Origin: a bacterium
GTDB taxonomy: Bacteria; Patescibacteriota; Patescibacteriia; JACQRZ01
NCBI GenBank assembly: GCA_023246095.1
Contig: JAHFJA010000006.1
Span: 1 to 49,122 of the forward strand
Length of the DNA stretch: 49,122 bases
Reading direction: 5' to 3'
Shown here: one piece after another, positions 5,268 to 41,864 of the stretch
Position numbering within the stretch: position 1 is the first letter of the stretch
Layout of the letters: the number at the start of each line of letters is the position of its first letter
Notes under the pieces: model-generated
The model's input: only the letters and a program-made list of their open reading frames with translations
Database searches by the model: none
What the model was told of the DNA's origin: nothing
Position numbers and translations under genes: made by a program

Positions 5268-6521
5268 ATGAGTGAAACTCTAATTACAGGGCTTGATATC
5301 GGGGCAACATCGGTTCGTGTTGCCATTGCTCAAGCGCGTGACGATGGTGAAAATGCGGGTCTTGAGATTCTGCACGTCTTTGAGCAACCTACTGAAGGTT
5401 TTTCACGAGATACTGTGTCCAGTATCGAGGACGCGGTTGGTTCAATCAGCCGATGTCTTGAAAAAGCGGAACGAGTAGTCGGTGTGCCAATACAATCAGC
5501 GTGGGTAGGTATTTCAGGCACACACATACAAACCAGAGCAAGTCGCGGGGTTGTTGCGGTTGGAAAAATGAATGGCGAAATATCGCCTCAGGATTTTGAG
5601 CGGGCCATTGAAGCGGCAAAAGCAATATCCACACCACCAAATTATGAGATATTACACGTTATTCCTCGATCTTGCGTAATTGATGGACAGCAAGGTATAA
5701 AAGATCCCATTGGTATGTCTGGAGTTCGTCTTGAGGTAGACACGCGCATTGTTCAGGGTCTTTCTTCTCAAATTAAAAATTTCACCAAATGTATATATAA
5801 AGCGGGAATTGAGATCGACGACTTGGTTTTCTCCTTACTCGCTGCCGCAGAGGCTACTTTGACTACCCGACAAAAAGAATTGGGTGTCGTTCTAATCGAT
5901 ATCGGTGGAGCAACTACCGGTGTTGCTGTATATGAAGAGGGTGAATTACTGCATTCATTCGTTTTGCCTTTAGGGTCGGATCACATCACGTCAGATATAG
6001 CGATTGGATTGCGTGTATCGCTTGAAGTGGCTGAACGAATTAAGGTCGAGTATGGGACCCTTCTGACAAAGCAAATCCAGAAAAAGGATGAGATTGATCT
6101 TTCCCTTATTGATCCCGCTGAGAAGGGATACATTGCACATAAATATATTGCGGAGATTTTGGAGGCACGTGTTGAAGAGATCTTTGATCGCGTAGAGTCC
6201 GAGTTGAAGCGCATAGGGAGAAGCGGGCTTTTACCTGCAGGTGCAGTTTTAAGTGGCGGCGGTGCAAAGCTTCCTGGTATAGCTGATTGTGCAAAGAGAA
6301 GACTCAGGTTGTCCTCATCTCTTGCTCACCTTAAAGCAACGATCATAGGAGGTGAACACCTGCGTGATCCTCGCTATATTACAGTCACAGGACTCTGTTA
6401 TTGGGGGTGGCATGCACAGCAGAGAAAAGAGAAGAAAATGTCGTTTTCATCCATAAATACGACCTCAGCGGCGGATGTAAAGGGGCGAGTAAAAAAATGG
6501 CTCAAGGCACTCTTGCCATAG
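5268..6521 (+). CDS. ftsA: Cell division protein FtsA
   Basis: GLDIG, DIGGATT, PIGMSGVRLE and LSGGGAKL motifs; directly upstream of ftsZ. Confidence 0.96.
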   Translation: MSETLITGLDIGATSVRVAIAQARDDGENAGLEILHVFEQPTEGFSRDTVSSIEDAVGSISRCLEKAERVVGVPIQSAWVGISGTHIQTRASRGVVAVGKMNGEISPQDFERAIEAAKAISTPPNYEILHVIPRSCVIDGQQGIKDPIGMSGVRLEVDTRIVQGLSSQIKNFTKCIYKAGIEIDDLVFSLLAAAEATLTTRQKELGVVLIDIGGATTGVAVYEEGELLHSFVLPLGSDHITSDIAIGLRVSLEVAERIKVEYGTLLTKQIQKKDEIDLSLIDPAEKGYIAHKYIAEILEARVEEIFDRVESELKRIGRSGLLPAGAVLSGGGAKLPGIADCAKRRLRLSSSLAHLKATIIGGEHLRDPRYITVTGLCYWGWHAQQRKEKKMSFSSINTTSAADVKGRVKKWLKALLP

Positions 6522-6595
6522 CGTGTTTGCGGTGTTAAGATTGTGGTGATGAATCAGAAGCTTATTCACACCATAATTTTTTTGATCGTAACCGT

Positions 6596-7792
6596 ATGGA
6601 AATTAGACCAGAAATTGAAACCTTCGCAAAGATCAAGGTGATCGGCGTAGGTGGCAGTGGTGGATCCGCTGTAAACAGAATGATTACAACTAAAATTCGC
6701 GGTGTAGAATTTCTCGTTGCCAATACCGATATCCAGGCGCTTCATATATCTCAAGCACCTATCAAACTCCACATCGGAAAAAGTGTTACCAAAGGTCTCG
6801 GAGCAGGGATGAATCCTGACGTTGGGAAAAAAGCGGCGGAAGAAAGTCAGAATGAAATCCGTGATGCATTGGCTGGCGCTGATATGGTGTTCATAACATG
6901 CGGTTTGGGTGGTGGCACTGGTACTGGTGCTGCACCAGTGGTTGCTGAGCTCGCACGCGATATTGGTGCGTTGACTATTGCTGTGGTAACAAAACCATTT
7001 TCATTTGAAGGACCAGAACGCAAACGTCTTGCCGAAGAAGGTTGGAAGGAACTAGCGGCGAAAGTAGACTCCATCATTACGATTCCAAATGACAAGGTAT
7101 TGCAGATCGTTGACAAAAAAACGACGCTGCAAGAAGCATTTGTAATGGCTGATGAAATATTGCAACAAGGTGTTCGCGGAATATCAGAGCTTATCACCAT
7201 TCCAGGACTTGTAAACGTCGACTTTGCGGACGTTAAAGCCATCATGAAAAATACAGGTTCCGCTTTGATGGGTATTGGAAATGGAACAGGGGACAATCGC
7301 GCGGTTGAGGCAGCAAAGGCAGCTATATCAAGCCCACTACTTGAGCTTTCTATTGATGGGGCAGACGGTATCTTGTTTACTGTCACCGGTGGACCGGAAT
7401 TGGGTATGCTTGAGGTGAACGAAGCGGCAAAGATCATTACCAGCTCCGCAGCGGCAGACGCTCGTGTTATCTTTGGTGCGGTTATTGATGAAAATATGGG
7501 TGATGATATTCGTATTACGGTCATCGCAACAGGATTTCCCAACAAAGATAAAGACAAGCTCACTTCAAAGGCAGCAGAACCAACGCTTCATACAGATCGA
7601 AAGACGATGACTGGAGGCCCGCATCAGAGTATCTATACAGCACCTATTCCTCGCATTATGCGTCCTCCTATTCGTATGGAGGAATACAATGTGGAGGATG
7701 ATGACGAGGTATCACCTCCACCCGCACGGGATGTGACACAAGATGATGATGAATTGGAAATCCCCGCGTTTATCAGAAAAAAAATGATGTAA
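6596..7792 (+). CDS. ftsZ: Cell division protein FtsZ
   Basis: GGGTGTG signature, NVDFADV, C-terminal LEIPAFIRK. Confidence 0.99.
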
Positions 7793-11245: not shown

Positions 11246-11943
11246 ATGGAAGCTAACCAACAAAATCATACTGGTGAAATTTGTTTTTTGTATCAGAGGG
11301 ATTTTTTGAGCGCAAGTGAGATTGCCGAGAAATTATCTTTGTCAATTGATGCGGTGTATTATTGTTTGAGAAAAAATAAGATACCACGACGGACAACAAC
11401 AGAACAGAATATAATGAGATTCGAAAAGACACCATCTACCTTCCTATTAATGAGCATCTAAGCGATATTGATAGAGGGTTGTTAATTGCAGGTATTATTA
11501 TGTATTGGTGTGAGGGATCCAAGAGAGGAGATGGAAAGACGGTTGACTTCGCAAACAGCGACCCGACTCTAATTATATTGTTTCTTAAGTTTTTACGATC
11601 ATTGCTCCATGTACAAGAGAAGAAACTACGATGCTATCTGTATTGTTTTGCAAATCAAGATACTGACAACCTTATTGATTATTGGTCAAGCTTAATTGAA
11701 ATCAGGAAAGATCAATTTACCAAGCCGTATGTTCGAGGTGTCTATAATCCAAGTAAAGAGGGAAGAATGCCCTATGGTTTACTACATATAAGATATGCTG
11801 ACAAGAAACTCTTGTCTTTTATCAAAAATTACATTAATATACTCCCATGTGAGTTAATAAGAAATATGGGCGGTTACCGAAGTGGTCAACCGGGGCAGAC
11901 TGTCAGTAAAGGCAGCTTTATTGAGCAATCAATATCGAATTAA
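11246..11943 (+). pseudogene. Frameshifted HTH + LAGLIDADG-like endonuclease gene overlapping tRNA-Tyr
   Basis: 11246-11461 encodes an HTH (LSASEIAEKLSLSIDAVYYCLRK). A second frame, open from 11380, encodes AGIIMYWCEGSK...VDFANSDPTLIILFLKFLR. One extra base near 11441-11446 would join them (...TPSTF-x-INEHLSDIDRGLLIAG). Could be an assembly error. Confidence 0.6.
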
Positions 11944-12192
11944 TTGGGTGAATTCGGGGAAATCTTCATCTCAATCTTTGGGAAAAGACAATCCCGAGCC
12001 AAGCTAGGAAGGACATAGGTTTCCTAGACGGTGTAGAGACTAGTGAGTGAGTTCCAACAATACTCTCACAAACAGCGCCCAACCCCGCTTCAAATAGCGG
12101 GTGATGATATAGTCCGTGCTCCTAGAAATAGGGGAATTACATGAAATCTGCTGGCATCGCCTTCGAAGGTTCGAATCCTTCACCGCCCACCA
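11868..12192 (+). tRNA. tRNA-Tyr(GTA) split by a group I intron; exons 11868-11903 and 12144-12192
   Basis: Joining the exons gives acceptor stem GGGCGGT/ACCGCCC plus ACCA, anticodon arm GCAGA-CTGT|AAA-TCTGC, a long variable arm and T arm GAAGG-TTCGAAT-CCTTC. Confidence 0.95.
11904..12143 (+). ncRNA. Group I intron (240 nt, no ORF, IA-like)
   Basis: P1 CUGU|C pairs with GGCAG, with U.G at the splice site. P3 UUGGGUG/CGCCCAA, P4 UUCGGG/CCCGAG, P7 GACUA/UAGUC, an extra hairpin between P7 and P3', P8 CCCGCU/AGCGGG, P9 GAAA tetraloop, terminal G at 12143. Confidence 0.93.
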
Positions 12193-12234: not shown

Positions 12235-12306
12235 GCCACTTTAGCTCAGTGGTAGAGCAACACTTTTGTAAAGTGAAGGTCCTGGGTTCGAATCCCAGAA
12301 GTGGCT
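12235..12306 (+). tRNA. tRNA-Thr(TGT)
   Basis: Acceptor stem GCCACTT/AAGTGGC, loop TTTGTAA, T arm CTGGG-TTCGAAT-CCCAG. CCA not encoded. Confidence 0.95.
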
Positions 12307-12603: not shown

Positions 12604-13416
12604 CTAAAGGGGGCTTCTTATGTTTTTTAGTATAGGGTTGGTTACTTTTGTGTATAGTTGGGTTGTTCTGATATTGGCGTGCCCCAGAAGCTCTTGTACG
12701 TATCGTACATCGACACCATTTTCCAAGAGGTGAGTAGCAAAGCTATGGCGCAAAGAATGAAATGTTGCTTCTTTTTGAATATTGGCTTTTTTCAGTGCAT
12801 GTTCAAATACTTTTTGCGCGGTTCTTTCGGTGAGTCGACCGCCACATTCGCTTGAAAATACATACTCGTCGAGCTGTTTATGCGAAATCTGATCAATTAT
12901 GACGGGGATTAATTTCTCAGGAAATACGGTAATGCGATCTTTATTGCCTTTTGCACCTTTAACGTGAATTGTCAGCTCGGAAAGATTGATATCCTTTACC
13001 TTCATCGCTGTTACTTCGCTAACGCGCAAACCTCCGGCGTAGGCAAGCGCAATCATTGTTTTGTGTTTTGTGTTAGGGATGACTCGTAGAATGGATTGAA
13101 TTTCATCGCGAGATAAGAAGATAGGGAGTTTACTGGGTGTCTTGGCAAACCGAATATCAAGCTTACTATTAAACTTGAGCACATTCCGACAGAAAAAATT
13201 TATCGCTTGAAGCTTTTGATTAACGCTTTGCGAGGCCATTCCTTGGTCTATTTTGGATAGTAAGTATTGCTTGATGAAGTCGATATCAACAGAATCGAGG
13301 TTACTTTGTTTGGAAGTTAAATATTCAGCCACACAGGCGGAATAGCTTTTGATTGTTTTGGGACTGTAATTACGCAGTCTTAGCTCATTTTCGAGCTTTG
13401 ATAAATAGACATTCAT
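12604..13416 (-). CDS. Tyrosine recombinase (IntI/XerD-like, SAM-like N-terminus, no IntI insertion), 270 aa
   Basis: LRLRNYSPKTIKSY N-terminus. Catalytic residues intact: GLRVSE, KGNKDR, HSLRHSFATHLLE, LLGH, TTQLY. Ends SPL like IntI proteins. Confidence 0.93.
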   Translation of the reverse strand: MNVYLSKLENELRLRNYSPKTIKSYSACVAEYLTSKQSNLDSVDIDFIKQYLLSKIDQGMASQSVNQKLQAINFFCRNVLKFNSKLDIRFAKTPSKLPIFLSRDEIQSILRVIPNTKHKTMIALAYAGGLRVSEVTAMKVKDINLSELTIHVKGAKGNKDRITVFPEKLIPVIIDQISHKQLDEYVFSSECGGRLTERTAQKVFEHALKKANIQKEATFHSLRHSFATHLLENGVDVRYVQELLGHANIRTTQLYTKVTNPILKNIRSPL

Positions 13417-13450: not shown

Positions 13451-13520
13451 ATACGAAATATTCGGGTAGTATACAATATCTCGTATGCTATATGTAAACA
13501 CTTCGGATATGGAAGAGTTA
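13451..13520. other. Candidate attI-like primary site
   Basis: ACTTCGGATATGGAAGAGTTA (13500-13520) matches only the right half of the downstream sites. It is preceded by hairpin ATACGAAATATT/AATATCTCGTAT. Confidence 0.45.
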
Positions 13521-13565
13521 TATGAAATGCCAAAAGGAAATAAGGTATTTGGCACATCATCTAAC
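13517..13565. repeat. Empty cassette: GTTA...TAAC inverted arms with a 13-nt loop
   Basis: GTTATATGAAATGCCAAA / TTTGGCACATCATCTAAC, 15 of 18 pairs. Confidence 0.7.
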
Positions 13566-14035
13566 ACGGGATATCCGACTCACAAGCACTCAGAATAAAA
13601 TTATTTTTTCAAATTCATATGAAGAAAGACAATCTAAACAGCAACCCAGAGTTATCGTGGACATTTCTTGATGGAAGTAAGAGAACAGCTGGAATTCTTG
13701 AAACTGTTGTCATTGGTAAAGGAGAATATTTGCCAGGGTGGAAATGGTCAACACACGCTGGTGTAATAACAGGCAAAGAATCAGAACGGCATGTTGGCTA
13801 TGTGCTTTCAGGTGAAATGATAATCAAAAATTCTAATGGTGATGAGATTATGGTTGGTCCTGGAGAAGCCTTCGAGGCAGACCCTGGACATGATGCGTGG
13901 GTTGTTGGAAACGTCCCTTGTGTTGCTTTGGATTTTACAGATTTAGGATTGAAAAAATAATTTTATTCTGAATGCCTGTTCATCCAAATTTGTCTTCGCT
14001 ACACTACGACAAACTTCGGATATCCTGATACGTTA
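13562..14035. repeat. attC-like site 1, carrying the cupin gene inside its loop
   Basis: TAAC-A-CGGGATATCCGA (13562-13578) ... TCGGATATCCTG-ATAC-GTTA (14016-14035). Inner 31-bp inverted repeat at 13582-13612/13949-13979. Confidence 0.75.
13619..13960 (+). CDS. Cupin-domain protein
   Basis: PGWKWSTH, HVGYVLSG and PGHDAWVVG motifs. Confidence 0.88.
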   Translation: MKKDNLNSNPELSWTFLDGSKRTAGILETVVIGKGEYLPGWKWSTHAGVITGKESERHVGYVLSGEMIIKNSNGDEIMVGPGEAFEADPGHDAWVVGNVPCVALDFTDLGLKK

Positions 14036-14204
14036 TACGCAATTCAAAAAATATTTTTCTAACGGAGAATAAGGAATGATAGGCTTTTAAAAGGAAATAA
14101 ATTTGTTTTTCTTTATTTATCGAGGGGGATAATTTGTGTTTCCCTCCACTTCGTTACAGAAAACGAATTATTTATAAATATTAATTATTAAAGATACTAG
14201 TATG
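14035..14204 (+). repeat. Cassette leader copy 1 (homologous to 15785-15957)
   Basis: Shared blocks ATACGCAATT.AAAAAATATTTTTCT, GATAGG, TAAATTTG.TTTT and CTTCG.TACA.AAA.GAAT.ATTT, up to the ATG. Confidence 0.8.
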
Positions 14205-14795
14205 AGAAAAATAACCGTTCTAACAATGATTACATTGGATGGAGTCATGCAAGCACCTGGCGGATCCAAAGAGGATACCGCAGAGGGTTTTAAATATGGC
14301 GGCTGGTCTACGCCGTATATGGATGAAGCGTATGGTAAAGTTGCAGCAGAAGAAATGAAACCAGCAGAATATCTTTTGGGCAGAACAACATTTGAGATTT
14401 TTGCCAGATACTGGCCAGAACATGAAAATGGATGGCCAGGTATCAATAATGGTACGAAATATGTCTTGAGTGGGACTATGAAAAATTCAGATTGGAAAAA
14501 TACCGTTTTTCTCACAAGTCTGGCTGATATCGAAAAGTTAAAAAATTCAGAAGGTCCCGACATACAAGTATGGGGCAGCAGTAAACTCGTTCAACTGTTG
14601 CTTAAGAATGATTTAGTGGACGAACTTCGACTCAAAATTCACCCATTGACAATTGGCGAAGGAAAAAAATTGTTTGGCGATGGCACGATTCCGGCAGCAT
14701 TTGCCTTAATAGAGAGTTCGGTTACACCAAGCGGTGTGATTATTGCCCATTACAAACGAGCTGGAGAAGTCAAGACTGGCACCGTTGGAGATTAA
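14202..14795 (+). CDS. Dihydrofolate reductase-like / RibD C-terminal domain protein
   Basis: TLDGVMQAPG, LLGRTT, GSSKLVQLLL..DLVDE and GEGKKLF motifs. Confidence 0.9.
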   Translation: MRKITVLTMITLDGVMQAPGGSKEDTAEGFKYGGWSTPYMDEAYGKVAAEEMKPAEYLLGRTTFEIFARYWPEHENGWPGINNGTKYVLSGTMKNSDWKNTVFLTSLADIEKLKNSEGPDIQVWGSSKLVQLLLKNDLVDELRLKIHPLTIGEGKKLFGDGTIPAAFALIESSVTPSGVIIAHYKRAGEVKTGTVGD

Positions 14796-14821
14796 AGAGA
14801 AAAGAATTTGACGCAAAAAAA

Positions 14822-14882
14822 TTGAAAAATGAAATTCACCCCTGACCCCTCTTTCATTTTTCAAAACGGAAAAAACAAATTT
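14822..14882 (+). repeat. Cassette trailer copy 1 (homologous to 17150-17210)
   Basis: TTGAAAAATGAAATTCACCCCT.ACC.CTCTTTC.T.TTTCAAA..GGAAAAAA, containing a 13-bp hairpin. Confidence 0.85.
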
Positions 14883-14938
14883 CATACAAATACAAAGAAA
14901 AGTATGGATTACAAAGTCACGGAAAAGTATACTACATA

Positions 14939-15026
14939 TAACAAAGGATATGAGGTTACGAAGCCTTACGACTTCTCCACTCAAATTGCTCCCTATATTC
15001 GCAACTTCTCATATCCTTAAACGTTA
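14939..15026. repeat. attC-like site 2 (88 bp)
   Basis: TAAC-A-AAGGATATGAG-GTTACGAA ... TTCGCAAC-TT-CTCATATCCTT-AAAC-GTTA. Confidence 0.8.
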
Positions 15027-15103
15027 TCGGAAATAGCAAAAATCTTTCCTTATAGTTTAATATTTTGGATTTTTTTTATTTTGAATGCAAAAATTTTAAA
15101 AAT

Positions 15104-15715
15104 ATGGGCAACGAAATAGTAAGCGCGTTCGTACTGGGTCTAATAGGCGGTGTGATTCCCGGCCCAGTTTTGGCGGCCACATTCACGGAAATTTTACAGT
15201 CTGGCATGTTAAAAAGCATGCGGATAATTCTATGGGCAATGTTGACCGAAACCGTTGTTGCCCTAATAAGTTTATTGGCACTATCATCGATGAATTTTTC
15301 TGAGAGCTTTTTCCAGGGTCTTTCGGTAGTCGGGGCCGCCATCCTAATTTGGATTTCGACTTCGATTTGGAAAGTCCACAAAATCGACACCGAAGAAAAA
15401 GTCCATTTCAGTCTGGGTAAAATTTCGGCGATGATTCTGGCTAATGGTGTGCTGTGGACTTTCTGGATCACCGTGTGTGTGCCGAAAGCGATTATGTTGA
15501 ATAATAAGGCGGCTTTCGGCAATTACTTGTTCTTGCTACTCGTCGAAATCGGATGGCTCATTTCCACTGTTCTGGTTGCAGTGATATTTTCAAGATTCAG
15601 AAAAATTCTTTCCAACCCAAAAGTCGTGCCAATTATTTTTAAAATTTTTGCTCTTGTATTCGTGTATTTCGCTGTCGATATGGTTTATAGAAGTATCAGG
15701 TTTTTCCTGACCTAA
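15104..15715 (+). CDS. LysE/RhtB-family exporter
   Basis: GLIGGVIPGP motif and multiple TM helices. Enclosed by ~60-bp inverted arms 15023-15083/15716-15777. Confidence 0.8.
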   Translation: MGNEIVSAFVLGLIGGVIPGPVLAATFTEILQSGMLKSMRIILWAMLTETVVALISLLALSSMNFSESFFQGLSVVGAAILIWISTSIWKVHKIDTEEKVHFSLGKISAMILANGVLWTFWITVCVPKAIMLNNKAAFGNYLFLLLVEIGWLISTVLVAVIFSRFRKILSNPKVVPIIFKIFALVFVYFAVDMVYRSIRFFLT

Positions 15716-15784
15716 CAAGATAAAAAAATTCCAAAATCAATAGTAAGGAAGAAAGATTTTTTGCTACATCAGATAACACGCTAT

Positions 15785-15957
15785 ATACGCAATTTAAAAA
15801 ATATTTTTCTTAAGGTAAAATGAAGATAGGGTTTCAAAATATGGATAAATTTGATTTTTTCTTTTATTGTAAATGGGAATAATATTGTATTTTCTTCTGC
15901 TTCGCTACAAAAATGAATCATTTTATGAACTTTTAATTGTTAAGGGATATTATTATG
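15785..15957 (+). repeat. Cassette leader copy 2, fused to a collapsed site at 15774-15790
   Basis: TAAC-A-CGCTAT runs directly into ATACGCAATT. The hairpin body and GTT are missing. Confidence 0.75.
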
Positions 15958-16854
15958 GAAAACAATATGCAAAAAATAACGCCAAACCTATGGTTTTACG
16001 GAAACGCTAAAGAAGCCGCGGATTTTTATACCTCTGTTTTTTCCGATGCCAAAATCGTCGCAACTTCGCACTATCCAAAGAGTAAAGAAGAGGGGCTCGC
16101 CGACTTCCAGCTAAATATGGCCAGTAAAGTATTGACGGTTGACTTCGACGTTATGGATTTTCGTTTCGTGGCTATCAATGCAGGACCTGAGTTTACTCCT
16201 AATCCTTCTATATCATTCTTTATCACACTGGATTCCAAAGAAGAAATTGACGAGTTGTGGGGAAAGCTTGGAGATGGCGGAAAAGAATTGATGCCGCTCT
16301 CAAAGTATCCATTTAGCGAGTACTACGGCTGGTTGCAAGATAAGTACAATGTGAGCTGGCAGCTTATTTTGAACAATCCCGAGGGCGACCAGCGACCGAA
16401 AGTGATGCCTTCATTTCTCTTTACGCAAGACAAAAGTGGAAAAGCAAAGGAAGCAAGAGATTTCTATCTCTCAGTTTTCAAGGATTCAAAAGAAGGTATT
16501 ACCGCGCTTTTCGAAGAAGATGCCCAAGTTGGTCAAAAGAAGGGAGACGTAATGTTTTCTGATTTCATGCTTGAAAATGTGTGGCTGGCTGCCATGGATG
16601 GTGGAAACCCACACGAATTTACCTTCAATGAAGGAGTATCACTTTCGATTAGTTGCAAAGACCAAGACGAAATTGACTATTACTGGGAGAAGCTCACAGC
16701 GGACGGCGGTGAGGAAAGTGTTTGTGGCTGGCTCAAAGACAAATATGGCGTAATTTGGCAAGTCGTGCCTGCGAATATGGAAGAGCTTATGAAGCGGTCG
16801 AATGCATTCAAAATCATGATGCAGCAAAAGAAAATAATTATTGCCGAGTATTAA
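15955..16854 (+). CDS. Two-domain VOC/PhnB-like (3-demethylubiquinone-9 methyltransferase family) protein
   Basis: KITPNLWF..AKEAADFY, YGWLQDKYNVSWQL and CGWLKDKYGVIWQV motifs. Confidence 0.9.
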   Translation: MENNMQKITPNLWFYGNAKEAADFYTSVFSDAKIVATSHYPKSKEEGLADFQLNMASKVLTVDFDVMDFRFVAINAGPEFTPNPSISFFITLDSKEEIDELWGKLGDGGKELMPLSKYPFSEYYGWLQDKYNVSWQLILNNPEGDQRPKVMPSFLFTQDKSGKAKEARDFYLSVFKDSKEGITALFEEDAQVGQKKGDVMFSDFMLENVWLAAMDGGNPHEFTFNEGVSLSISCKDQDEIDYYWEKLTADGGEESVCGWLKDKYGVIWQVVPANMEELMKRSNAFKIMMQQKKIIIAEY

Positions 16855-16857
16855 GAA

Positions 16858-17145
16858 ATGAGCCATATGAATGAAAAGGAAATTGCAACCGGCTTTGTTC
16901 ACAAAGTACCTGCTGATTTAAAGGAAATCTTAACTTCTAATCCTGATGTGATCGAAAGATGGAACAAGTTAACTCCTGTTGCACGCAACGAGTGGATATG
17001 TTGGGTTACGATTGTCAAAAAACCAGAAACAAGAAAAGAGCATCTTGTTCGTTTGCAAGAAGATATTCTTATAGGGAAAAAGAGGCCATGTTGTTGGCCT
17101 GGTTGTCCTCATCGCAGAGAAAGTGCGAAAAAATGGTTTAAATAA
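16858..17145 (+). CDS. YdeI/OmpD-associated domain protein
   Basis: VPADL, WNKLTPVARNEWICWV..KKPETR and RPCCWPGCPHR motifs. Confidence 0.85.
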   Translation: MSHMNEKEIATGFVHKVPADLKEILTSNPDVIERWNKLTPVARNEWICWVTIVKKPETRKEHLVRLQEDILIGKKRPCCWPGCPHRRESAKKWFK

Positions 17146-17149
17146 GAAT

Positions 17150-17274
17150 TTGAAAAATGAAATTCACCCCTAACCTCTCTTTCGTGTTTCAAATAGGAAA
17201 AAATCAAATATATTATTAACGAGGAAAGCCTATCTGATAAACGAAATAGAAAATATTTTGATGAAATCACGTAT
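17150..17274 (+). repeat. Cassette trailer copy 2, truncated inside the expected TAAC core
   Basis: Homologous to 14822-14882 and complementary to leader 2 in several blocks. Ends AATCACGTAT followed by CATG. Confidence 0.75.
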
Positions 17275-17275
17275 C

Positions 17276-17968
17276 ATGGGAAATAACAAACTAATTCAAC
17301 TGAAAGATTCTCTTGTGGGCGCATTGTCAAAGCATGGATCCGTTGAGGAGATTGCTCTTTTTGGCTCGCTGGTTAAAGGCGATGTTGATCAGTATTCTGA
17401 TATAGATATGATTGTGGCCATCTCTTCACCGATAAACGGATTAGAGGCATTGGGACACTTTGGAGAGGTACGGTATTATCGATCGTTTAGTAGCGTAAAA
17501 TTTCCTTCAGGACGGTACTGGATGAAGGGTTACTCCGTATTCAATAAAATTGATATAAGTTTTCATACCCTTGATGAGTTTGAGAAAATTGTACTTCATG
17601 GTGATCCTGAAGGATATACAACACCGCCGTTCAATATTGAGTGGAAAGCAAATCGGGTCACCAGTGCAAAGTCCATCTCGACAAACATTGATATGGCGAG
17701 TCCATATATATTTTCCGAAGCAGAGGACAAGATAGGCAAGCTTGTGTATCGTTTGTCTCGTTCGCTTAAGTCTGTATATAGAAACGAATCCCCAGAACAT
17801 GATCCCCATGACGTTTATTCAGAATTGAGCTCATTATGGGCTATTCATTCAAACTCAAAGTGGGTTGGTGGTGCCTTGGATAGTCTTGTGACAGAAATAT
17901 TGTCTTTGGGTTCTGAGAGTGATACTGTAGTGTTACATAATGTGACGCCACTAAACAAATATGAATGA
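17276..17968 (+). CDS. Nucleotidyltransferase-domain protein (Pol-beta/MNT-like)
   Basis: LFGSLVKG..DQYSDID (GS...DxD) motif. Confidence 0.82.
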   Translation: MGNNKLIQLKDSLVGALSKHGSVEEIALFGSLVKGDVDQYSDIDMIVAISSPINGLEALGHFGEVRYYRSFSSVKFPSGRYWMKGYSVFNKIDISFHTLDEFEKIVLHGDPEGYTTPPFNIEWKANRVTSAKSISTNIDMASPYIFSEAEDKIGKLVYRLSRSLKSVYRNESPEHDPHDVYSELSSLWAIHSNSKWVGGALDSLVTEILSLGSESDTVVLHNVTPLNKYE

Positions 17969-18215
17969 AATAAAACGCAAATGGGATTTACTCCCAAAAA
18001 CAAAAAGACAGTCTTGTATTGACGAAATCGTTACTTTCTTCAAACAAAAACGAGACGAGGAAATTGGCATAATTGCAGCGGAAGATATTTTAGATTTTTT
18101 CTTGCAAGATATCGGAACAGACATATATAATAAAGGCATAGAAGATTCAAAAGAACTGCTAAAAAAACAGTTTGAGAATTTGGAAATAGATCTAGATCTT
18201 TTACTGAATAAATAG
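17961..18215 (+). CDS. DUF2164-family small protein
   Basis: FFKQKRDEEIGIIAAEDILDFF...IYNKGIED pattern. Confidence 0.8.
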   Translation: MNEIKRKWDLLPKTKRQSCIDEIVTFFKQKRDEEIGIIAAEDILDFFLQDIGTDIYNKGIEDSKELLKKQFENLEIDLDLLLNK

Positions 18216-18270
18216 TTTTGTTCAGTCATTACGAGAAGACGTACTGGGTGATTTTTCTTAACCACAGAAT

Positions 18271-18687
18271 ATGAAACAAAAAATCAAAAGAGGTGTTGCG
18301 ATTGTTGCAATTTATAATGGCAAGATTGTTTTATTAAAACAAATGCGACCTCCGCACAAAGTACCATTTTTAAATATTGTAATGGGTAGTATTAAAAATA
18401 ATGAAACACCAGAGCAAGCAGCAAAAAGAGAATGTATTGAAGAAATTGGTTTGGTGCCAAAAAAGCTGGTGAAGATTGGCAGAATAATCCAATTACCCGG
18501 AAGTGCAAATATCGAAACGGTTATTTTTTACTCTGAATTTCAGGAAAAGCCAAGTGTTCCTAAAAACATTTCCGAACCCATAATTGGTTTGGGGTTTTAT
18601 TCTGAGGAAGAGATAAAAAAGCTAATTAGCAAAGAAAAGATTATAGAGTCAACAACACTTTTGGCTCTACTATTGATAAAAAAATAA
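18271..18687 (+). CDS. NUDIX hydrolase
   Basis: GSIKNNETPEQAAKRECIEEIG Nudix box. Confidence 0.88.
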   Translation: MKQKIKRGVAIVAIYNGKIVLLKQMRPPHKVPFLNIVMGSIKNNETPEQAAKRECIEEIGLVPKKLVKIGRIIQLPGSANIETVIFYSEFQEKPSVPKNISEPIIGLGFYSEEEIKKLISKEKIIESTTLLALLLIKK

Positions 18688-18709
18688 ATCTGCGAAATTA
18701 AGAAAATCT

Positions 18710-19471
18710 ATGACCTACCAATGGGAAAAAACTGACAACCCTGACAAGATCAGATTTCGAAAAGAATTCGATCTTGATTCTGTTGTAGAAAAAGGGAAAA
18801 GTGAGTTTGAAAAATTACTCTTGTTAAGGTCTTGGGTACACAATATTTTACCTCCTGGCACCCCCTCGAGAGACTATTCTGAATTGGGGGTATTCGAAAT
18901 ACTGAGCGATGCAAAGAAAGGACTTCAGTTTTGGTGCACTCAATATAATCAAGTCTTTGTTCAAAGCGCAGTTGCTTTAGATTTTTATGCAAGAAAACTG
19001 GGAGTCGATTCTAAAGATCCGTCAAAAGACATGCATCACGGAGTTGCTGATATTTGGTCAAACGAATTTCAAAAATGGTATGTTGTAGACACGCAACATA
19101 ACCAACATTATGAAAAGGATGGTGAACCTCTGAATGTGTTGGAAATAAGAAACGAATATCTTAAAGATGGAGGTCAAAAAGTTAAAGGAATAATTGGAAA
19201 CTACGAAAAAGTCCTTGAATATAAGAAGGATTCTACTGGATACGACTCTCCTTCAAATTACTTTTGGTTTTTTATCCCTTTAAGAAATAACTTTTTTGAG
19301 GATCCTCGTATATACCATTCTCAAGCGCTACTCTGGGTAGATGAATTTAATAAAGATATGAAATGGGTGAGGAAGGGTGGAATTGAGGATCATCCTATGT
19401 ATGAATCCCAATTTGTTGAGACGTCTGATATTAATGAATGTTTCCCGGATATGGATAACATGAATAAGTAA
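18710..19471 (+). CDS. Transglutaminase-like (Cys-His-Asp) protein
   Basis: WCTQY, HGVADIWSNEFQKWYVVD. Confidence 0.72.
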   Translation: MTYQWEKTDNPDKIRFRKEFDLDSVVEKGKSEFEKLLLLRSWVHNILPPGTPSRDYSELGVFEILSDAKKGLQFWCTQYNQVFVQSAVALDFYARKLGVDSKDPSKDMHHGVADIWSNEFQKWYVVDTQHNQHYEKDGEPLNVLEIRNEYLKDGGQKVKGIIGNYEKVLEYKKDSTGYDSPSNYFWFFIPLRNNFFEDPRIYHSQALLWVDEFNKDMKWVRKGGIEDHPMYESQFVETSDINECFPDMDNMNK

Positions 19472-19477
19472 CCAAAA

Positions 19478-20128
19478 ATGGCCATGAGCGAACTAGAAAA
19501 ATTTATGCCACCATTTGAACAGTCACAACCAGAAAAAATACTGGCCTCGTTTGATGGAGAGCAGAAGACAGTACAGGATCAAGTCAAACAAGAGATACAA
19601 AACTGCCTTGGTATTGAGCAAAAAGATATTGAGAGAATAGAACTACTAAAGGTTGAAAATCTTCCAGAACACTATCGAGCGCAATTCGAGATTCTTCATG
19701 ACGAGCGGTTGAATGGAGTTACTATCGCAGTAGTACCCGATGAGTTATGGGTCAAAGGAGATCAGCCGTCTGAATCGAGTGCTGATAAACAGCTTATATT
19801 GATCAAGAAAAGCTATTTTGAAACACAAGAAAATCCTGACGAAATTGCTTGGCTATGCCATGAATTAGCGCACTGTCAAAATTTCCTTGATTCCCAGTCA
19901 CCTGAAGAATATCAAGATAACATGCAAAAATTGGCTTTTGAAGACTTGAACACTGGGTTTCCATACCCCAATAATCTCGTTGAAAAGTTCACATTCACCA
20001 GACAGTTTCAATATCTAAAAGAACAAGGTAAAAGTAGGGATGAGGTCCTAGAAATGTTGAGCCATGATTACAAAGAAAAAGACATCCCGTTTTTTAGTCG
20101 GCTGTTGGATGCTGTGTATGGGGAATAA
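19478..20128 (+). CDS. Hypothetical protein with HExxH zincin motif
   Basis: LCHELAHCQ, later NLVE. Start could be the ATG at 19505. Confidence 0.6.
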   Translation: MAMSELEKFMPPFEQSQPEKILASFDGEQKTVQDQVKQEIQNCLGIEQKDIERIELLKVENLPEHYRAQFEILHDERLNGVTIAVVPDELWVKGDQPSESSADKQLILIKKSYFETQENPDEIAWLCHELAHCQNFLDSQSPEEYQDNMQKLAFEDLNTGFPYPNNLVEKFTFTRQFQYLKEQGKSRDEVLEMLSHDYKEKDIPFFSRLLDAVYGE

Positions 20129-20136
20129 ACTCGATA

Positions 20137-20567
20137 TGAAAAAACTAAAATGCAATATTGGTGAATATGGCATCATCGTAAATCAACAAGGAGAATTGTT
20201 AATTTTGAAATTGGCAGCTAGCAAGAAGTACCCAAAGGAGACATGGATGTTACCGGGCGGTCGATTGAATATTGATGACCAACCAGAAGAAGGGCTCCAG
20301 CGTGAAATCAGCGAAGAGACAGGATTAAAGGTGAAAGTTATCAGCCCATGCCACGTTGCGCGATGGGGTTCAGAGAAACCGCCAAAATATGGGGTATTCT
20401 TTCTCTGTAAATTAGTCGGTAAGCAAACAGTGAAAATAAGTAATGAGCATGTTGAAAACAAATGGATACAATTTAGCGACATCGAAAAAATATCTTGGCA
20501 CAATGTGAATAGTAAAATAGCCATCAAAAAATCAAGAACTCTCATGAGTGGGGTTTGTGATGTATAA
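20137..20567 (+). CDS. NUDIX hydrolase
   Basis: WMLPGGRLNIDDQPEEGLQREISEETGL. Confidence 0.9.
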
Positions 20568-20582
20568 TGACCAGTCTTTCAT

Positions 20583-21215
20583 ATGTCAATAAATCTAAAA
20601 ATCGAATTTGGCATAGAGTACGAACTAAAAAGGGTAAACTATACTCTTGCAAAATTAGATTGGTTCGATTCGCAAGGATATAGGACGAGATTACCGGAAG
20701 GAATAACCAAAGAATCTTCGGAAGACGAAATCAAACATCAAATCGCGAATGAATTTGATGAAAAGAAATATAAAAAATTGGCTGATCAAATTGGCGCTGA
20801 TTTTGCGACGGTAAGCACTCAACTATTTAAAACGTTAAGAGAAGTATTTGGACAGGATATTCCCGAAACGTTCTGCGTCTATCTCACCACTTACGGTGTC
20901 GGTGGATCATATAACCTTCCTAATACGGTCATTTTTAACATAAACAACACAAGAGGCTACAAAACAATCATTCACGAAATTATTCATCTGCTTATTGAGA
21001 ACCAAATTATAAAATATAACGTTCAACACTGGGAAAAAGAAAGAATCGTTGATTTGATTTTGAATTCTAAGGAGTTGAGCTTTTTAGAGTATACTGAGTG
21101 GCAGAACAGCTATAATGGTGTTGAAAAATATATAGATGATTTATTCAATAGTTACTTCTTCGAGGATCCGGAAAACTTTTTTTCAAAAATACAACATGCA
21201 CGCATCTTTGCTTAA
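20583..21215 (+). CDS. Hypothetical protein with HExxH motif
   Basis: YGVGGSY, IIHEIIHL, HWEKE. Confidence 0.6.
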   Translation: MSINLKIEFGIEYELKRVNYTLAKLDWFDSQGYRTRLPEGITKESSEDEIKHQIANEFDEKKYKKLADQIGADFATVSTQLFKTLREVFGQDIPETFCVYLTTYGVGGSYNLPNTVIFNINNTRGYKTIIHEIIHLLIENQIIKYNVQHWEKERIVDLILNSKELSFLEYTEWQNSYNGVEKYIDDLFNSYFFEDPENFFSKIQHARIFA

Positions 21216-21218
21216 TCA

Positions 21219-21930
21219 AATGGAACAGGAAATTAACCAAACGTTAAAATCTTTTTTTGGTAAAAATTTAGTTTCATTATTGGTAGAGGGAAGCTATGGT
21301 ACATATGACATTATCGAGGGATACAGTGATTATGATCTTTGTGCTTTGGTGAAAGATGTTAGCAAAACGCCAGACGTCGATTTAGGCGATTTGTCAAAAA
21401 AATATTCCATTGATATCAAATGTTCAGTAAAGTCGTATAAAGATTTCCAAAATAGAGTTAAGAATAGTAACAAATCCTCCAGGTTTATTGATAATCTGTG
21501 GCTTGTCAAAGCAAAAAAGCAGGCGCGGGTCTTGGTCGGGAAAAATGTACTCAACCAAATACCGAGCATAAAGGAACTCATCAAAAGAGATATTGGCTGT
21601 GAACTAAGGGCAGATTATTATTATGCCACAAATCTAAATCCAGAATGGAATATATTTAGGCGAGAACCACAAAAATGGGTTAATTATATCATTAACATGA
21701 GTAATGACCTCTTGTTAAGTAAAGGCGTTATCACAAAAAAGGCAGATATTCCGGCAATGTTAGAAAAGCACTGTCCCGAATTCAAAGGGGTCGCGTACGT
21801 CAAAGAAGCACTTTATTTGCGAAAAACAAAGAAGGTTTTACACTTAACAAAAATAGAGAAAAATCAGCTAAAAAAGACCTTAGGCTTGTTTTTGGAGGAT
21901 TATAAGTTGTATACTTTCGGTGTTAAATGA
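21219..21930 (+). CDS. Nucleotidyltransferase-like protein
   Basis: VEGSYG......YSDYDL (GS...DxD) motif. Confidence 0.7.
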
Positions 21931-21965
21931 TCATACTCAATATGCCAAACCTCACAATTAAATAG

Positions 21966-22754
21966 ATGTCACAAAATACCAACAAACCTATATTGTCCTT
22001 TCCTTACCATGACCCCGCAGGGAAATTTAATGACTACATACGCCAGTCATTACCAAGATTGAAGGAAATTTTCTCGCATATTTGTATTAGTGCAACTCCG
22101 TCAACGTACGAGATAAATAAAGAGTTTGTCGATTTTTTGGAAAAAGAAGGCTGTCTAGTGTACAGAAATGTTGAAAATAGCAGTATAGGCGATCACTACA
22201 GAAACGCACTGCAGTTGGCGGTGGATATCGAGGGTGACAATAAAATATTCTTCAGTTTTATTGACCGGCTAGTATATATTTTAAACACCGATGTGCTGGA
22301 TCAGTTCACAGAAGATATGCAAACGAACTTTATTGACGTAGTTCTATACGAACGAAGCGAAAAAGCTTGGCAGACACACCCTGCGAACTATAGAGAGATA
22401 GAACAAACGGTAAATAAATTGGGGAGTTTTCTCATAGGTGAAGAAGTTGAATTGGGGACATGCGGATTTTCTATATATTCAGATATTGCAAGACAGATTT
22501 TACCGCAATCAATTGCCGATTCCTATTCGGCGGGGACAGAGTGGATTTTACTTATATATCTGTTAGGGATAAAACCAGCAATAATAAAGGTTGATTGGTT
22601 ATCCTGGGAAGACCCGTTCGTTGAGAAAATTTCGCCACAACAGCTCAAAGTCGAGCGGGAACAGGATAGGAATGAATATATCAAGCGTTTGGAAATGAAT
22701 ATTCCGTTCATAAATTTGCTTGTTCAAAAAAGATTTTACGGATTATTGAAATAG
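21966..22754 (+). CDS. Hypothetical protein (possibly GT-A-like fold)
   Basis: 262-aa ORF with PYHDP, GDHYRNAL, FIDRL and LSWEDP. The fold assignment is only a guess. Confidence 0.55.
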   Translation: MSQNTNKPILSFPYHDPAGKFNDYIRQSLPRLKEIFSHICISATPSTYEINKEFVDFLEKEGCLVYRNVENSSIGDHYRNALQLAVDIEGDNKIFFSFIDRLVYILNTDVLDQFTEDMQTNFIDVVLYERSEKAWQTHPANYREIEQTVNKLGSFLIGEEVELGTCGFSIYSDIARQILPQSIADSYSAGTEWILLIYLLGIKPAIIKVDWLSWEDPFVEKISPQQLKVEREQDRNEYIKRLEMNIPFINLLVQKRFYGLLK

Positions 22755-22764
22755 GGGCGGCATC

Positions 22765-22793
22765 TTGACTCAAACAGCTCAAAGTGGTAGCCT
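22765..22793 (+). promoter_or_regulatory. Putative promoter of uppS
   Basis: TTGACT-17 nt-TAGCCT with TGn. Confidence 0.45.
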
Positions 22794-22823
22794 GATCGAA
22801 TCCTATTAGTTTAAATATTACGT

Positions 22824-23516
22824 ATGGAAAACGAAACGCTACCAAAACATATTGGCATAATTATGGACGGAAATCGCCGTTGGGCGAAGAATAACGATCT
22901 CCCTACACTTGAAGGGCATGCAGAAGGGGAAAGAACGTTGTCCGATATTGTTGATCATTGTAAAAAACGAGATATTAAAGTATTGACGGTTTTTGCGTTT
23001 TCTACGGAAAACTGGAAGAGGACTCCCGATGAGGTAAAATACCTGCTCGATTTATTTTCAAAATTAATTCATGATCGAGCGGAGCGATTAATCCAGGAGA
23101 AGGTGAAAGTTCAGTTTATTGGCGATCTCAGCGGATTTTCACCTATACTTCGCAAAGAGATGCTTGATCTTATGGAACAGACAAAAGATCATACAGTCTT
23201 AACGTTCAACCTCGCGGTAAATTATGGAGGTCGCGCAGAGATACTGAATGCAATACGCCGGATCGATGAAGAGGGTATTGATATGAACACCTTGACGGAA
23301 GAAGTTTTCTCAAACTACCTGTACACCGCAGGATTGCCCGATCCTGATCTTGTTATCCGAACGTCAGGAGAACAGCGTCTTTCAAATTTTTTAACATGGC
23401 AGAGCGTCTATAGTGAACTGTATTTTATTGATATTCACTGGCCTGATTTCACACCAGAAGAACTCGACAAAGCAATCGAAGCTTATTCTCTCCGCCAACG
23501 TCGTTTTGGTAAATAA
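22824..23516 (+). CDS. uppS: Undecaprenyl diphosphate synthase
   Basis: IMDGNRRW, FSTENWKR, NYGGR and IRTSGEQRLSNF motifs. Confidence 0.97.
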   Translation: MENETLPKHIGIIMDGNRRWAKNNDLPTLEGHAEGERTLSDIVDHCKKRDIKVLTVFAFSTENWKRTPDEVKYLLDLFSKLIHDRAERLIQEKVKVQFIGDLSGFSPILRKEMLDLMEQTKDHTVLTFNLAVNYGGRAEILNAIRRIDEEGIDMNTLTEEVFSNYLYTAGLPDPDLVIRTSGEQRLSNFLTWQSVYSELYFIDIHWPDFTPEELDKAIEAYSLRQRRFGK

Positions 23517-23517
23517 C

Positions 23518-23796
23518 ATGGAATATCCATATATTCTTTCATTGGGCAAAGAATTAGAAGAGACAGGTACCATATCGTTTACCGCGTCAGTTCATCCAGG
23601 CGCGCGTACAACCAATGTTCAAAACGTATTTGAAAATAATGTTATAAAGATTAATATTGCAAAACCGGCAGATCAAGGAAAAGCCAATAAAGAACTGATA
23701 CGATTTATTGCGGAACACTTTTCTGTTCCTCAGGTCAATGTAGATATCGTAACAGGGGAACACTCGAGATTGAAAGGAATCCGGATAATAAAATAA
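23518..23796 (+). CDS. DUF167/UPF0235 family protein
   Basis: VHPGA, PADQGKANKELIRF and GEHSRLK motifs. Confidence 0.88.
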   Translation: MEYPYILSLGKELEETGTISFTASVHPGARTTNVQNVFENNVIKINIAKPADQGKANKELIRFIAEHFSVPQVNVDIVTGEHSRLKGIRIIK

Positions 23797-23927
23797 AAAA
23801 CGATAATAAGAGGCGGTGAATGCACAGAGAATCAACTTGGGTTACGGATATGTATTTGTTGCCCGACGGGTTGATTTATGGTATGATCCTTGTTGGAGAA
23901 CCTCTTATTTTATAGGAAAAGGTCACG

Positions 23928-39799: not shown

Positions 39800-40780
39800 G
39801 TGGCTAAACTAAAATTTCTCGCAAGCATCTTCATTGTCCTCATGAGTTTTGCTTTATCGGGGTGTGTTATAAGACAAACAGCCCCCATAATTGCACCTTC
39901 TCCAGCATCCATTGTTCAAATGTCACCATCTCAATCTAGTGTTCCAATAATTATGAACATGATTGTGATAGACCCACTCAACACTGATCCAACAACATCA
40001 GATTTTGAGTTGATCAAAGGTGAATTAAGAACTCAGATTACCCCCGATGTTCTTAAAGCAGCTGGAGTTGACCTGGGAGCAAAGGAAGATATCGTTGATA
40101 ATATCAAAAATATGTGTGGTATTGATGAGTCTACCCCTGACAAGAAGGTCGTTCTTGTTATCAATCGATCTATGATTAACAATGGGGTGAAGGTATTTTA
40201 CGAAGGTCCTATGAATAAGTTCAATCTGAAGACCGCTACCGACTTTTCTCTTGAAGATCAATACGCAGCTATTCAGAAAGGAATGAATATATTTAGCAAT
40301 ATTACAGGACTTCCTGTTAGTATGGTTCACTCTAAAGAAGAAGCCAATATCGTTCTTGAAGCCCCCGCTGGTCTTGACAGACCTCGCAGCTCTCTCACTG
40401 GCGAAGTACATGGATCATTCCAAACAGAAACAGGAAGACTCAATGGCTTATGGGATGAGATCGGAGTTGATATGCGCCTATATGATGTTGAGCCATCTTC
40501 ATATATTGATTTTTCTTCTGTGAAAGATCCAGTACTTAAGGCCAGGATGGAGAAGGCAGTCAAAACAGTTGCGTGGACGTATTCTACTGTCCACGAATTA
40601 GGACACGCTTTCGGGTATCGCATACACAGTAGCAACCCTAAAAGTATCATGAGTGCTCAGCTGGATATTCGTATAAAATACGTTGATACTCCGGAGATAT
40701 TTACTGTGGGTTTTATCAATAGTGATACTAACAACGCTGCATACAAGGTTGCACGACTTCTGGTGGCAAAAGGAATGTAA
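39800..40780 (+). CDS. Lipoprotein, matrixin-like metalloprotease
   Basis: Lipobox LSGC, HELGHAFGYRIH, Met-turn SIM. SD AAGGAG before the GTG start. Confidence 0.8.
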   Translation: MAKLKFLASIFIVLMSFALSGCVIRQTAPIIAPSPASIVQMSPSQSSVPIIMNMIVIDPLNTDPTTSDFELIKGELRTQITPDVLKAAGVDLGAKEDIVDNIKNMCGIDESTPDKKVVLVINRSMINNGVKVFYEGPMNKFNLKTATDFSLEDQYAAIQKGMNIFSNITGLPVSMVHSKEEANIVLEAPAGLDRPRSSLTGEVHGSFQTETGRLNGLWDEIGVDMRLYDVEPSSYIDFSSVKDPVLKARMEKAVKTVAWTYSTVHELGHAFGYRIHSSNPKSIMSAQLDIRIKYVDTPEIFTVGFINSDTNNAAYKVARLLVAKGM

Positions 40781-41847: not shown

Positions 41848-41864
41848 GTTTAGAGGCTAAATAT

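Follow-up and report, generated by a model that had tools for sequence, protein, structure and literature searches.

Background

In integrons, the attC sites of the gene cassettes are recombined as folded bottom strands, with a replicative resolution, and it is the additional domain of the integrase IntI, together with the extrahelical bases of attC, which allows this single-stranded and strand-selective capture of cassettes. A folded substrate is also known from CTX-phi, whose forked hairpin attP(+) mimics a duplex site and is integrated by the host XerCD at dif1. The pdif sites of Acinetobacter plasmids are 28-bp duplex sites for XerC/XerD, without any linked recombinase gene. Here we analyse a stretch of 49,122 nucleotides from a small groundwater bacterium of the Patescibacteriota (contig JAHFJA010000006.1 of the assembly GCA_023246095.1; the whole stretch is called the window below). 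Its positions 13,451 to 17,274 are an integron-like gene-cassette array, made of a divergent Xer/XerA-like recombinase gene, an attI-like site and four cassettes with attC-like boundaries. A preliminary description of this array had noticed that the mismatches between the arms of its inverted repeats are mostly A.C on the top strand, i.e. G.T wobbles on the bottom strand, and had concluded that selection acts on the folded bottom strand. We find that the bottom strand does fold better than the top strand throughout a large family of related sites, and that this asymmetry is carried by a handful of invariant positions and not by the ordinary mismatches. The explanation which we favour as a whole, with a confidence that is modest, is that an integron-like array uses its folded bottom strand, by preference, as the substrate, that this strand is marked by fixed positions and that the enzyme is of the Xer type.

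The joint origin of the IntI domain and of the extrahelical bases is raised as a "chicken-egg" question in a passage of Escudero et al. 2016 (PMC4792948) which also names the CTX-phi/XerCD reaction. According to the procedure given in Cury et al. 2016 (PMC4889954), search tools discard the recombinases which lack the IntI domain, and for this reason attC-like arrays with an Xer-like enzyme would be invisible to integron search tools. In a section of Smyshlyaev et al. 2021 (PMC8138268), the possible stand-ins for Xer include a "Cand" subgroup of Xer-related enzymes found in candidate phyla, and archaeal integrons with an IntI carrying the additional domain are presented in Ghaly et al. 2022 (PMC9668308). 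No description of arrays of the present type in candidate phyla was found in the literature searched, which covered few subscription journals and consisted of main texts without supplements. The family described below is a concrete system for asking whether strand-selective hairpin recombination works without the IntI domain, and we consider the underlying array system more interesting than the mismatch pattern itself.

A family of structured sites

Using tblastn, we confirmed relatives of the recombinase in 399 of the 556 matched stretches of genome contigs and in 462 of the 600 matched stretches of metagenome contigs, with identities of 55-77%. We kept 80 loci per scan, i.e. 160 of the approximately 860 confirmed stretches, and removed 12 duplicates. 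The recombinase, the attI-like site and the family of attC-like sites recur in the resulting 148 non-duplicate loci, which come mostly from Patescibacteria and in a few cases from archaea (the archaeal members include a 1.39-Mb contig of Altiarchaeales and a contig of Methanosarcinaceae; the named genomes are otherwise mostly Patescibacteria). An attI-like L box with its GTT lies at most 220 nt from the start of the recombinase in 103 of the 122 loci having at least 220 nt upstream, the median distance from this GTT to the start codon being 113 nt, and attC-like sites, one or more per locus, were called in 44 of the 67 loci with at least 2 kb upstream. We counted the anchor motif of the sites 247 times in the 504 kb lying on the array side of the recombinase, against 56 times in the 885 kb of the other side. 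In the genome of the window itself, where a second array was looked for, the sole paired matches of the motif fell within a duplicated coding region. Many contigs break off at the attI-like site or just past it, 100-300 nt ahead of the start of the recombinase gene (e.g. in L001, L003, L005, L008, L009, L014 and L015), which fits with assemblies breaking in variable arrays.

Read on the top strand, a site consists of R'' (ACATC-nnnn-AAC), 1-3 nt, an L'' of 11 nt, a variable stem 1, CCCAAAT, a variable stem 2, ACTTC running into L', 3-6 nt ending in AC, and finally R' (GTT-nnnn-CGAAAT). We started from 95 candidate sites, of which 10 without a CCCAAAT-like motif were dropped before all counts. 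The 85 sites left, from the window and from the loci, are imperfect palindromes R''-L''...L'-R' with AAC...GTT, and 75 of them, called short sites below, are not longer than 260 nt (their lengths are 85-248 nt). The 10 candidates above 260 nt were kept out of the energy counts and of the counts of 1x1 and 2x2 mismatches, but inside the table of in-site R-box pairing. Among these long candidates, at least the one at positions 5700-6600 of the window was rejected as a false pairing within coding DNA, and L059_858 and L070_3622 as pairings of wrong partners.

The motif CCCAAAT is nearly invariant (63 of the 75 short sites). AAC and GTT are paired in all 85 sites, but the search pattern itself demanded both. 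At each of its 11 positions, the L stem has a Watson-Crick pair in 64 to 75 of the 75 short sites; a given position shows at most four types of pair, the distinct L'' 9-mers number 32, and the stem aligns without any gap over the 11 positions in these sites, with no extrahelical bases such as those of the L box of attC. Stems 1 and 2 each fold locally into a short hairpin whose loop has a few bases, and their sequences are unrelated from one site to another. Judged by these sequences, we are dealing with attC-like hairpins which covary strongly and which, because of this covariation, most likely act as folded single strands.

Several hundred bases are found in the stem-1 loop, between L'' and CCCAAAT, of some sites: 13554-14043 in the window, L002 1513-2095, L052 582-1023, L070 1372-2096, L073 1864-2389, L108 170-932 and L131 883-1690 (the array coordinates of the loci are counted from the recombinase start on the reverse strand of the locus). 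As the stem-1 loop of site 1 of the window encloses a whole cupin gene, genes may sit inside a site as well as ahead of it. In a complete Wolfebacteria genome (L002), a structured element of approximately 230 nt, devoid of open reading frame (ORF), is present three times, at about 105-335, 1300-1530 and 2085-2315; it has two nested R''-L'' halves and one L'-R', and first elements resembling it are present in L012 and L025.

Exchange of the cassettes

Within the 85 sites, only GTT/AAC is constant in the pairing of the two R boxes, positions 4-7 being paired in 31 to 48 sites. The R' of the preceding site is complementary to the R'' of the following site at positions 1-9 and 12-16 (86 distinct cassette-end pairs, with arms of a median length of 25 nt). 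Since the complementarity spans the ends of a cassette and not the boxes of one site, the sequence past GTT travels with the downstream cassette, which is a signature of integrons: as in the integron crossover at G|TT, the start of a cassette is complementary to its own R''.

The RibD_C cassette of the window (14031/14032 to about 14872-14882) is also present in the runs X2, X3 and X4, from two other studies, with 24-26 differences in ~842 nt (~97% identity). The shared sequence starts precisely at AC|GTT (14031/14032) and is preceded by three different sequences. In the run X4, the cassette is followed by a perfect inverted copy, 28 nt long, of 14032-14059; hence, this cassette start probably had another original partner than the R'' which the window now has at 14931-14942. 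The comparison of these sequences places the exchange of the cassettes at or adjacent to the GTT of R'. The four sequencing runs which hold the stretch consist of contigs only, which show neither strand nor RNA level.

One could also imagine modules lying between inverted double-stranded sites of the Xer type, as in the pdif-like modules of Acinetobacter or in invertible segments, with R'/R'' and L''/L' serving inversion or module swapping instead of forming hairpins. Inverted sites do alternate along the array, either type of interval can hold a gene (the cupin gene between L'' and L', the RibD_C and LysE genes between R' and R''), and the partner sites of a tyrosine recombinase need matching overlap regions, which could possibly mimic covariation. 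We nevertheless regard such modules as very unlikely: the local hairpins with tiny loops formed by stems 1 and 2 would be needless for double-stranded recombination, the presence of one cassette in different contexts, broken exactly at AC|GTT, fits an excision followed by an insertion, and the anchor motif is strongly strand-specific (71 occurrences on the top strand and 12 on the bottom strand, on the array side of the first 80 loci and of the window).

Strand asymmetry of folding

The comparison of the folding energies of both strands, which the preliminary description had proposed, turned out in favour of the bottom strand. With DNA energy parameters, the bottom strand is the more stable one in 65 of the 75 short sites, the top strand in 8, and both are equal in 2 (mean difference -2.56 kcal/mol, Wilcoxon p=6.5e-11). 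When one representative per sequence cluster is retained, the bottom strand is more stable in 46 sites, the top strand in 7 and neither in 1. Mononucleotide shuffles (20 per site) show that composition accounts for -0.84 kcal/mol, and the real difference is the larger one in 64 of the 75 sites. This means that a strand asymmetry exists and that it goes beyond composition. In the window, the arms of site 1 cofold at -40.4 kcal/mol on the bottom strand and at -38.0 kcal/mol on the top strand, and the minimum free energy of site 2 is -14.4 kcal/mol on the bottom strand and -10.3 kcal/mol on the top strand.

On the bottom strand, the G.T pairs of the minimum free energy folds number 175, as against 60 on the top strand, and once G.T pairs are forbidden the difference between the strands is only -0.55 kcal/mol. 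Hence, G.T pairs account for most of the advantage of the bottom strand. In the unpaired parts of the sites, the bottom strand has a frequency of 0.242 for G and of 0.118 for C; a purine and G skew of attC bottom strands is mentioned in a part of Nivina et al. 2016 (PMC5027507).

Fixed positions and variable stems

The nine A.C mismatches listed in the preliminary description are all in the sequence (Table 1), and so is the G.T which it had given as an exception, at 13568/14026; only the start of GTTATACGCAAT had to be moved from 14031 to 14032. It had omitted several others, and our recount over 12 helices of the window gives 15 A.C against 3 G.T (binomial p=0.0075), or 14 A.C if two mutually exclusive pairings of site 2 are counted once. 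The excess of A.C is thus real in the window. However, about half of these mismatches fall at positions which are A.C in nearly every member of the family, and they are therefore not independent events.

We tallied the single and tandem mismatches from the G.T-free folds of both strands, a procedure which is symmetric with respect to the strands. At the three-way junction, i.e. at the base of stem 2, where the last A of CCCAAAT faces the first C of ACTTC, an A.C was called in 49 of the 75 sites; three sites have CCCAAGT, by which the junction pair becomes G-C. Among the 86 cassette-end pairs, position 10 of the R box is A.A in 74 and position 11 is A.C in 83. A tandem T.C/C.T recurs at the base of stem 1, with calls in 16 and 15 sites, the 5' side reading G-Y-T-C in 52 of the 75 sites. 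Read on the bottom strand, the junction is G.T, positions 10-11 are T.T and G.T, and the base of stem 1 is a tandem G.A. In other words, wherever a fixed position is not Watson-Crick, the top strand has a harsh mismatch (A.C, A.A, pyrimidine-pyrimidine) and the bottom strand a mild one (G.T, T.T, tandem G.A), and it is because the fixed mismatches are much milder there that the bottom strand folds ~2.6 kcal/mol better. The candidate strand marks are narrowed in this way to three fixed features, instead of a general tolerance of wobbles.

This pattern bears on the idea that the structures act in RNA, either as the 3' untranslated region or terminator of the cassette messenger RNAs (top strand) or as an antisense RNA (bottom strand). 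The hairpins are intergenic, there are conserved leader and trailer hairpins on cassettes, and an antisense RNA would have the same G.U pairs as the bottom-strand DNA. An RNA from the top strand, on the other hand, would bear A.C, A.A and tandem pyrimidine mismatches at its most conserved positions. Besides, the sites follow the boundaries of the cassettes and the crossover point and not the ends of transcripts, the distance between R' and the R'' paired with it reaches several hundred or thousand bases, no Rfam family was found at the cassette sites at the gathering score, and the stretch is in no RNA run. We hold an action in RNA to be very unlikely.

We propose that the sites would act as folded single strands, that the bottom strand would be the active one, as in integrons, and that this strand would be marked by the fixed mismatch positions together with the G-rich unpaired parts, in replacement of the extrahelical bases which are read by the IntI-specific domain. 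The claim of the preliminary description that selection acts on folded single-stranded DNA of the bottom strand keeps two supports, the better folding of this strand and the covariation of the hairpins; its reasoning from the tolerance of mismatches is not supported, and which strand is active is something that we infer. Considering the sequences at hand, we keep folding of the single bottom strand as the best reading, and give it about even odds.

Several results weigh against this reading. Outside the fixed positions, the helices of the sites contain 12 A.C and 17 G.T, to which the L stem and stems 1 and 2 contribute 7 and 16, respectively; counted position by position, the L stem alone has 6 cells of the A.C type and 8 of the G.T type. 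When cut from its conserved flanks, stem 1 is more stable on the top strand in 42 sites and on the bottom strand in 21 (mean +0.21 kcal/mol), and stem 2 on the bottom strand in 38 and on the top strand in 19 (mean -0.12 kcal/mol). The arms at the ends of the cassettes are the sole class leaning to A.C outside the fixed positions (26 A.C against 12 G.T, p=0.034 uncorrected). A generic scan for inverted repeats in array and non-array flanks, which is dominated by chance repeats in AT-rich DNA, had displayed an excess on the array side (168 A.C against 91 for arms of at least 20 nt); this excess was rejected, as it became 89 against 90 after removal of two conserved contexts and collapse of identical contexts. 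The orientation of the array has no link with the GC skew, which is positive in 33 and negative in 46 of 79 loci, and in the window the flanks of the LysE cassette cofold slightly better on the top strand (-31.2 kcal/mol) than on the bottom strand (-29.6 kcal/mol). Moreover, the fixed bases are invariant and, as they never vary, they may be sequence-specific contacts of a protein rather than pairs. Finally, in its 3' half, which consists of the L' box, a spacer and the R' box with its GTT, each site resembles the double-stranded attI-like site, and the recombinase is without the domain that IntI uses on single-stranded attC.

The binomial comparison of A.C with G.T over homologous arrays, which the preliminary description had called for, therefore yields no consistent excess of A.C outside the fixed positions. 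Its view of drift mismatches filtered by the wobble tolerance of the bottom strand is not supported: the excess is traced to the invariant junction and to position 11 of the R box, and the variable stems have no preference. Ordinary drift mismatches show no strand bias, and a general bias to A.C is not supported. Since the variable positions and the stems alone lack bias, we concluded that the asymmetry is hard-wired in a handful of invariant positions and is not a diffuse trace of drift.

One may suppose that no strand is chosen by folding energy at all: CCCAAAT, ACTTC, GAAAT and ACATC would be contacts for the recombinase or for a host factor, double-stranded attI-like half sites would be recombined in the classical manner of Xer, and A.C would be a by-product of the differing consensus of R' and R''. 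The attI-like layout of the 3' half and the variable positions devoid of an A.C excess speak for this supposition, as do the alignment of the enzyme with XerA from end to end, without the IntI insertion, and the conclusion drawn in Cury et al. 2016 (PMC4889954) that tyrosine recombinases near attC without intI_Cterm are not IntI. Nevertheless, it gives no reason for the covariation of L'' and L' with arbitrary sequence at 11 positions, nor for the hairpin potential of stems 1 and 2 with their unrelated sequences, nor for the fact that, at every fixed position departing from Watson-Crick pairing, the mismatch of the top strand is the harsh one and that of the bottom strand the mild one. In addition, the CCCAAGT variants restore a G-C at the junction. 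We consider contacts on duplex sites as unlikely, though as an alternative deserving attention.

The recombinase

The best matches of the recombinase in NCBIfam and in the PDB are XerA. It reaches 216 bits with XerA_Arch (cutoff 220) and aligns with XerA (PDB 5hxy) from end to end in a single stretch, and it reaches 202 bits with the integron integrase TIGR02249 (cutoff 265), split into two stretches. Against IntI4 of Vibrio (PDB 2a3v), residues 8-179 are aligned to 9-183 and residues 195-270 to 242-317, which leaves 15 residues in place of the 58 of IntI4. The split match below the cutoff and these 15 residues bear out what had been said of the missing IntI insertion: the IntI-specific additional domain (I2 helix, intI_Cterm, near patch III) is absent. 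The HxxR and GH...Y motifs are present in the structure-based alignment.

A second tyrosine recombinase of 327 amino acids is encoded in the same genome (contig C23 66213-66761; locus L162 1450-2433, minus strand) and matches XerC/XerD with 245 and 233 bits; from its sequence it is probably the housekeeping enzyme. A complete relative genome likewise holds a second recombinase gene which is more similar to XerC/D. As the genome of the window and this relative each have an XerC/D-like gene, the array recombinase is not the sole protein of the Xer type. Regarding an Xer/dif role of the array, the GC skew, calculated for the window, has no switch at the array and changes sign near 41 kb, and the XerC/D-like gene lies elsewhere in the genome.

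Comparison with known systems

The array is similar to integrons in the divergent recombinase gene adjoining an attI-like site, in the small co-oriented cassettes, in the imperfect palindromes R''-L''...L'-R' with invariant AAC/GTT and an unequal central spacer, in the part of R' beyond GTT which belongs to the next cassette, and in the unpaired parts which are G-rich on the bottom strand. It differs from them on two defining points, as this recombinase is devoid of the IntI-specific insertion and this L stem of extrahelical bases. In addition, and unlike those of integrons, the present sites have a three-way junction, an invariant CCCAAAT, an L-box sequence conserved across phyla and a fixed mismatch of 2 nt at R positions 10-11; some genes lie in the stem-1 loop, and many cassettes have their own conserved leader and trailer.

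The CTX-phi/XerCD reaction resembles the present system by its Xer-type enzyme without an I2-like domain and by its hairpin without extrahelical bases, provided that the sites here act, as we suppose, as folded single strands. However, the phage borrows the housekeeping XerCD and targets dif, whereas here a dedicated second recombinase stands beside its own site and a multi-cassette array. The pdif modules are likewise small gene modules between inversely oriented sites of the Xer type, but the elements are here structured, 85-248 nt long, with two covarying internal stems and a dedicated recombinase adjoining; alternating 28-bp duplex sites without a structured spacer are not what we found. 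With the "Cand" subgroup and the archaeal XerA, the recombinase has in common a simple Xer-like fold from candidate phyla, and it differs from the "Cand" subgroup in being tied to a cassette array, in a genome with another Xer-like gene.

Given these likenesses and differences, we tentatively put forward, as a conjecture that is plausible but falls somewhat short of probable, that the family is an integron-type platform without the IntI-specific domain or extrahelical bases, widespread in Patescibacteria and also present in archaeal genomes, in which the choice of the strand would reside in the fixed wobble and mismatch positions and in the three-way junction. Such a platform would either be of ancestral type, intermediate between Xer/dif and integrons, or result from a separate invention of the capture of cassettes as single-stranded DNA.

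Layout of the array in the window

Table 1. Features of the cassette array and mismatched pairs of its helices, in window coordinates.
Feature	Positions	Strand	Remarks
Tyrosine recombinase, Xer/XerA-like	12604..13416	-	270 amino acids from the ATG at 13416; mechanical ORF extends to 13560; Pfam PF00589 and PF13495
Inverted repeat 5' of the attI-like site	13451..13486	+	arms of 12 nt (13451-13462/13475-13486), one A.C at 13457/13480; the "hairpin at 13451" of the preliminary description
attI-like site	13499..13528	+	L box ACTTCGGATAT, spacer of 6 nt, R' from the GTT at 13517; aligned by eye with related loci
attC-like site 1	13554..14043	+	R'' ACATCATCTAAC; L'' 13567-13577; stem-1 arms 13582-13612/13949-13979; CCAAAT; stem 2; L' 14017-14027; R' GTT at 14032
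Cupin-domain ORF	13619..13960	+	113 amino acids; Pfam Cupin_2, E=1.3e-05, under the gathering score; whole ORF in the stem-1 loop of site 1
Cassette 2	14032..15022	+	leader ~170 nt; RibD_C ORF 14202-14795 (Pfam, 68 bits); trailer hairpin 14816-14875; attC-like site 2 at 14931-15034
Cassette 3	15023..15783	+	LysE-family ORF to 15715 (Pfam LysE, 39 bits); R'' CATCAGATAAC at 15767-15777 as end
Cassette 4	15784..17274	+	same leader module as cassette 2; 3-dmu-9_3-mt/VOC ORF to 16854; OmdA ORF 16858-17145; trailer hairpin 17144-17203 (Pfam matches; direct repeats D1, D3, D4, D10)
A.C, cupin arms	13585/13976, 13589/13972
A.C, ends of the RibD_C ("DHFR") cassette	14038/14936, 14040/14934, 14042/14932
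A.C, inner stem of site 2	14958/15002		GTTACGAA/TTCGCAAC
A.C, ends of the VOC cassette	15790/17269, 15791/17268
A.C, hairpin 13451-13462/13475-13486	13457/13480
LysE flanks, C.A	15044/15756, 15048/15752		omitted from the preliminary description
LysE flanks, A.C	15033/15767		omitted from the preliminary description
LysE flanks, T.G	15045/15755, 15080/15719		omitted from the preliminary description
A.C, junctions	13988/14014, 14985/15005		omitted from the preliminary description
Ends of cassette 1	13527/13555		omitted from the preliminary description

The region of the inverted repeat at 13451-13486 is kept across related loci. The gene which had been called "DHFR" is, by Pfam, the RibD_C ORF of cassette 2. 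The flanks of cassette 3 are complementary over ~60 nt (inverted repeats I2 and I5), and this cassette is followed, near 15767-15795, by a degenerate R''/R' junction without L boxes. Cassette 4 terminates with an R''-like box at 17265-17274, past which there is no L or R'.

The leader (14032-14200 and 15784-15955) and the 60-nt trailer hairpin are common to two cassettes, 2 and 4, the genes of which are unrelated. The leader carries a promoter-like stretch TTGatt...gATAAT and a hairpin. Both modules are also found in other loci, and in the runs X2 and X3 they flank another insert, of 907 nt.

Other features of the window

From the array onward to ~24 kb (13500-24000), the GC content is 0.36-0.39, against 0.40-0.45 elsewhere in the window. 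No site can be recognised among the tightly packed genes at 17277-22754 (nucleotidyltransferases, NUDIX and genes of no assigned function), which may represent former cassettes or a separate island. Both the sign of the GC skew and the orientation of the genes switch at ~40500-43500, approximately 27 kb from the array, where a terminus or an origin of replication may be located.

Two RNA features can be mentioned as well. A group I intron is found by Rfam (68 bits, full model) at 11893-12135 on the plus strand, where it overlaps the end of the ORF 11479-11943; it lies 100 nt upstream of tRNA-Thr(TGT) (12235-12306) and inside no tRNA called by ARAGORN. The bacterial RNase P RNA, at 47636-48164 on the minus strand, is 529 nt long for a model of 367 positions, which implies large insertions.

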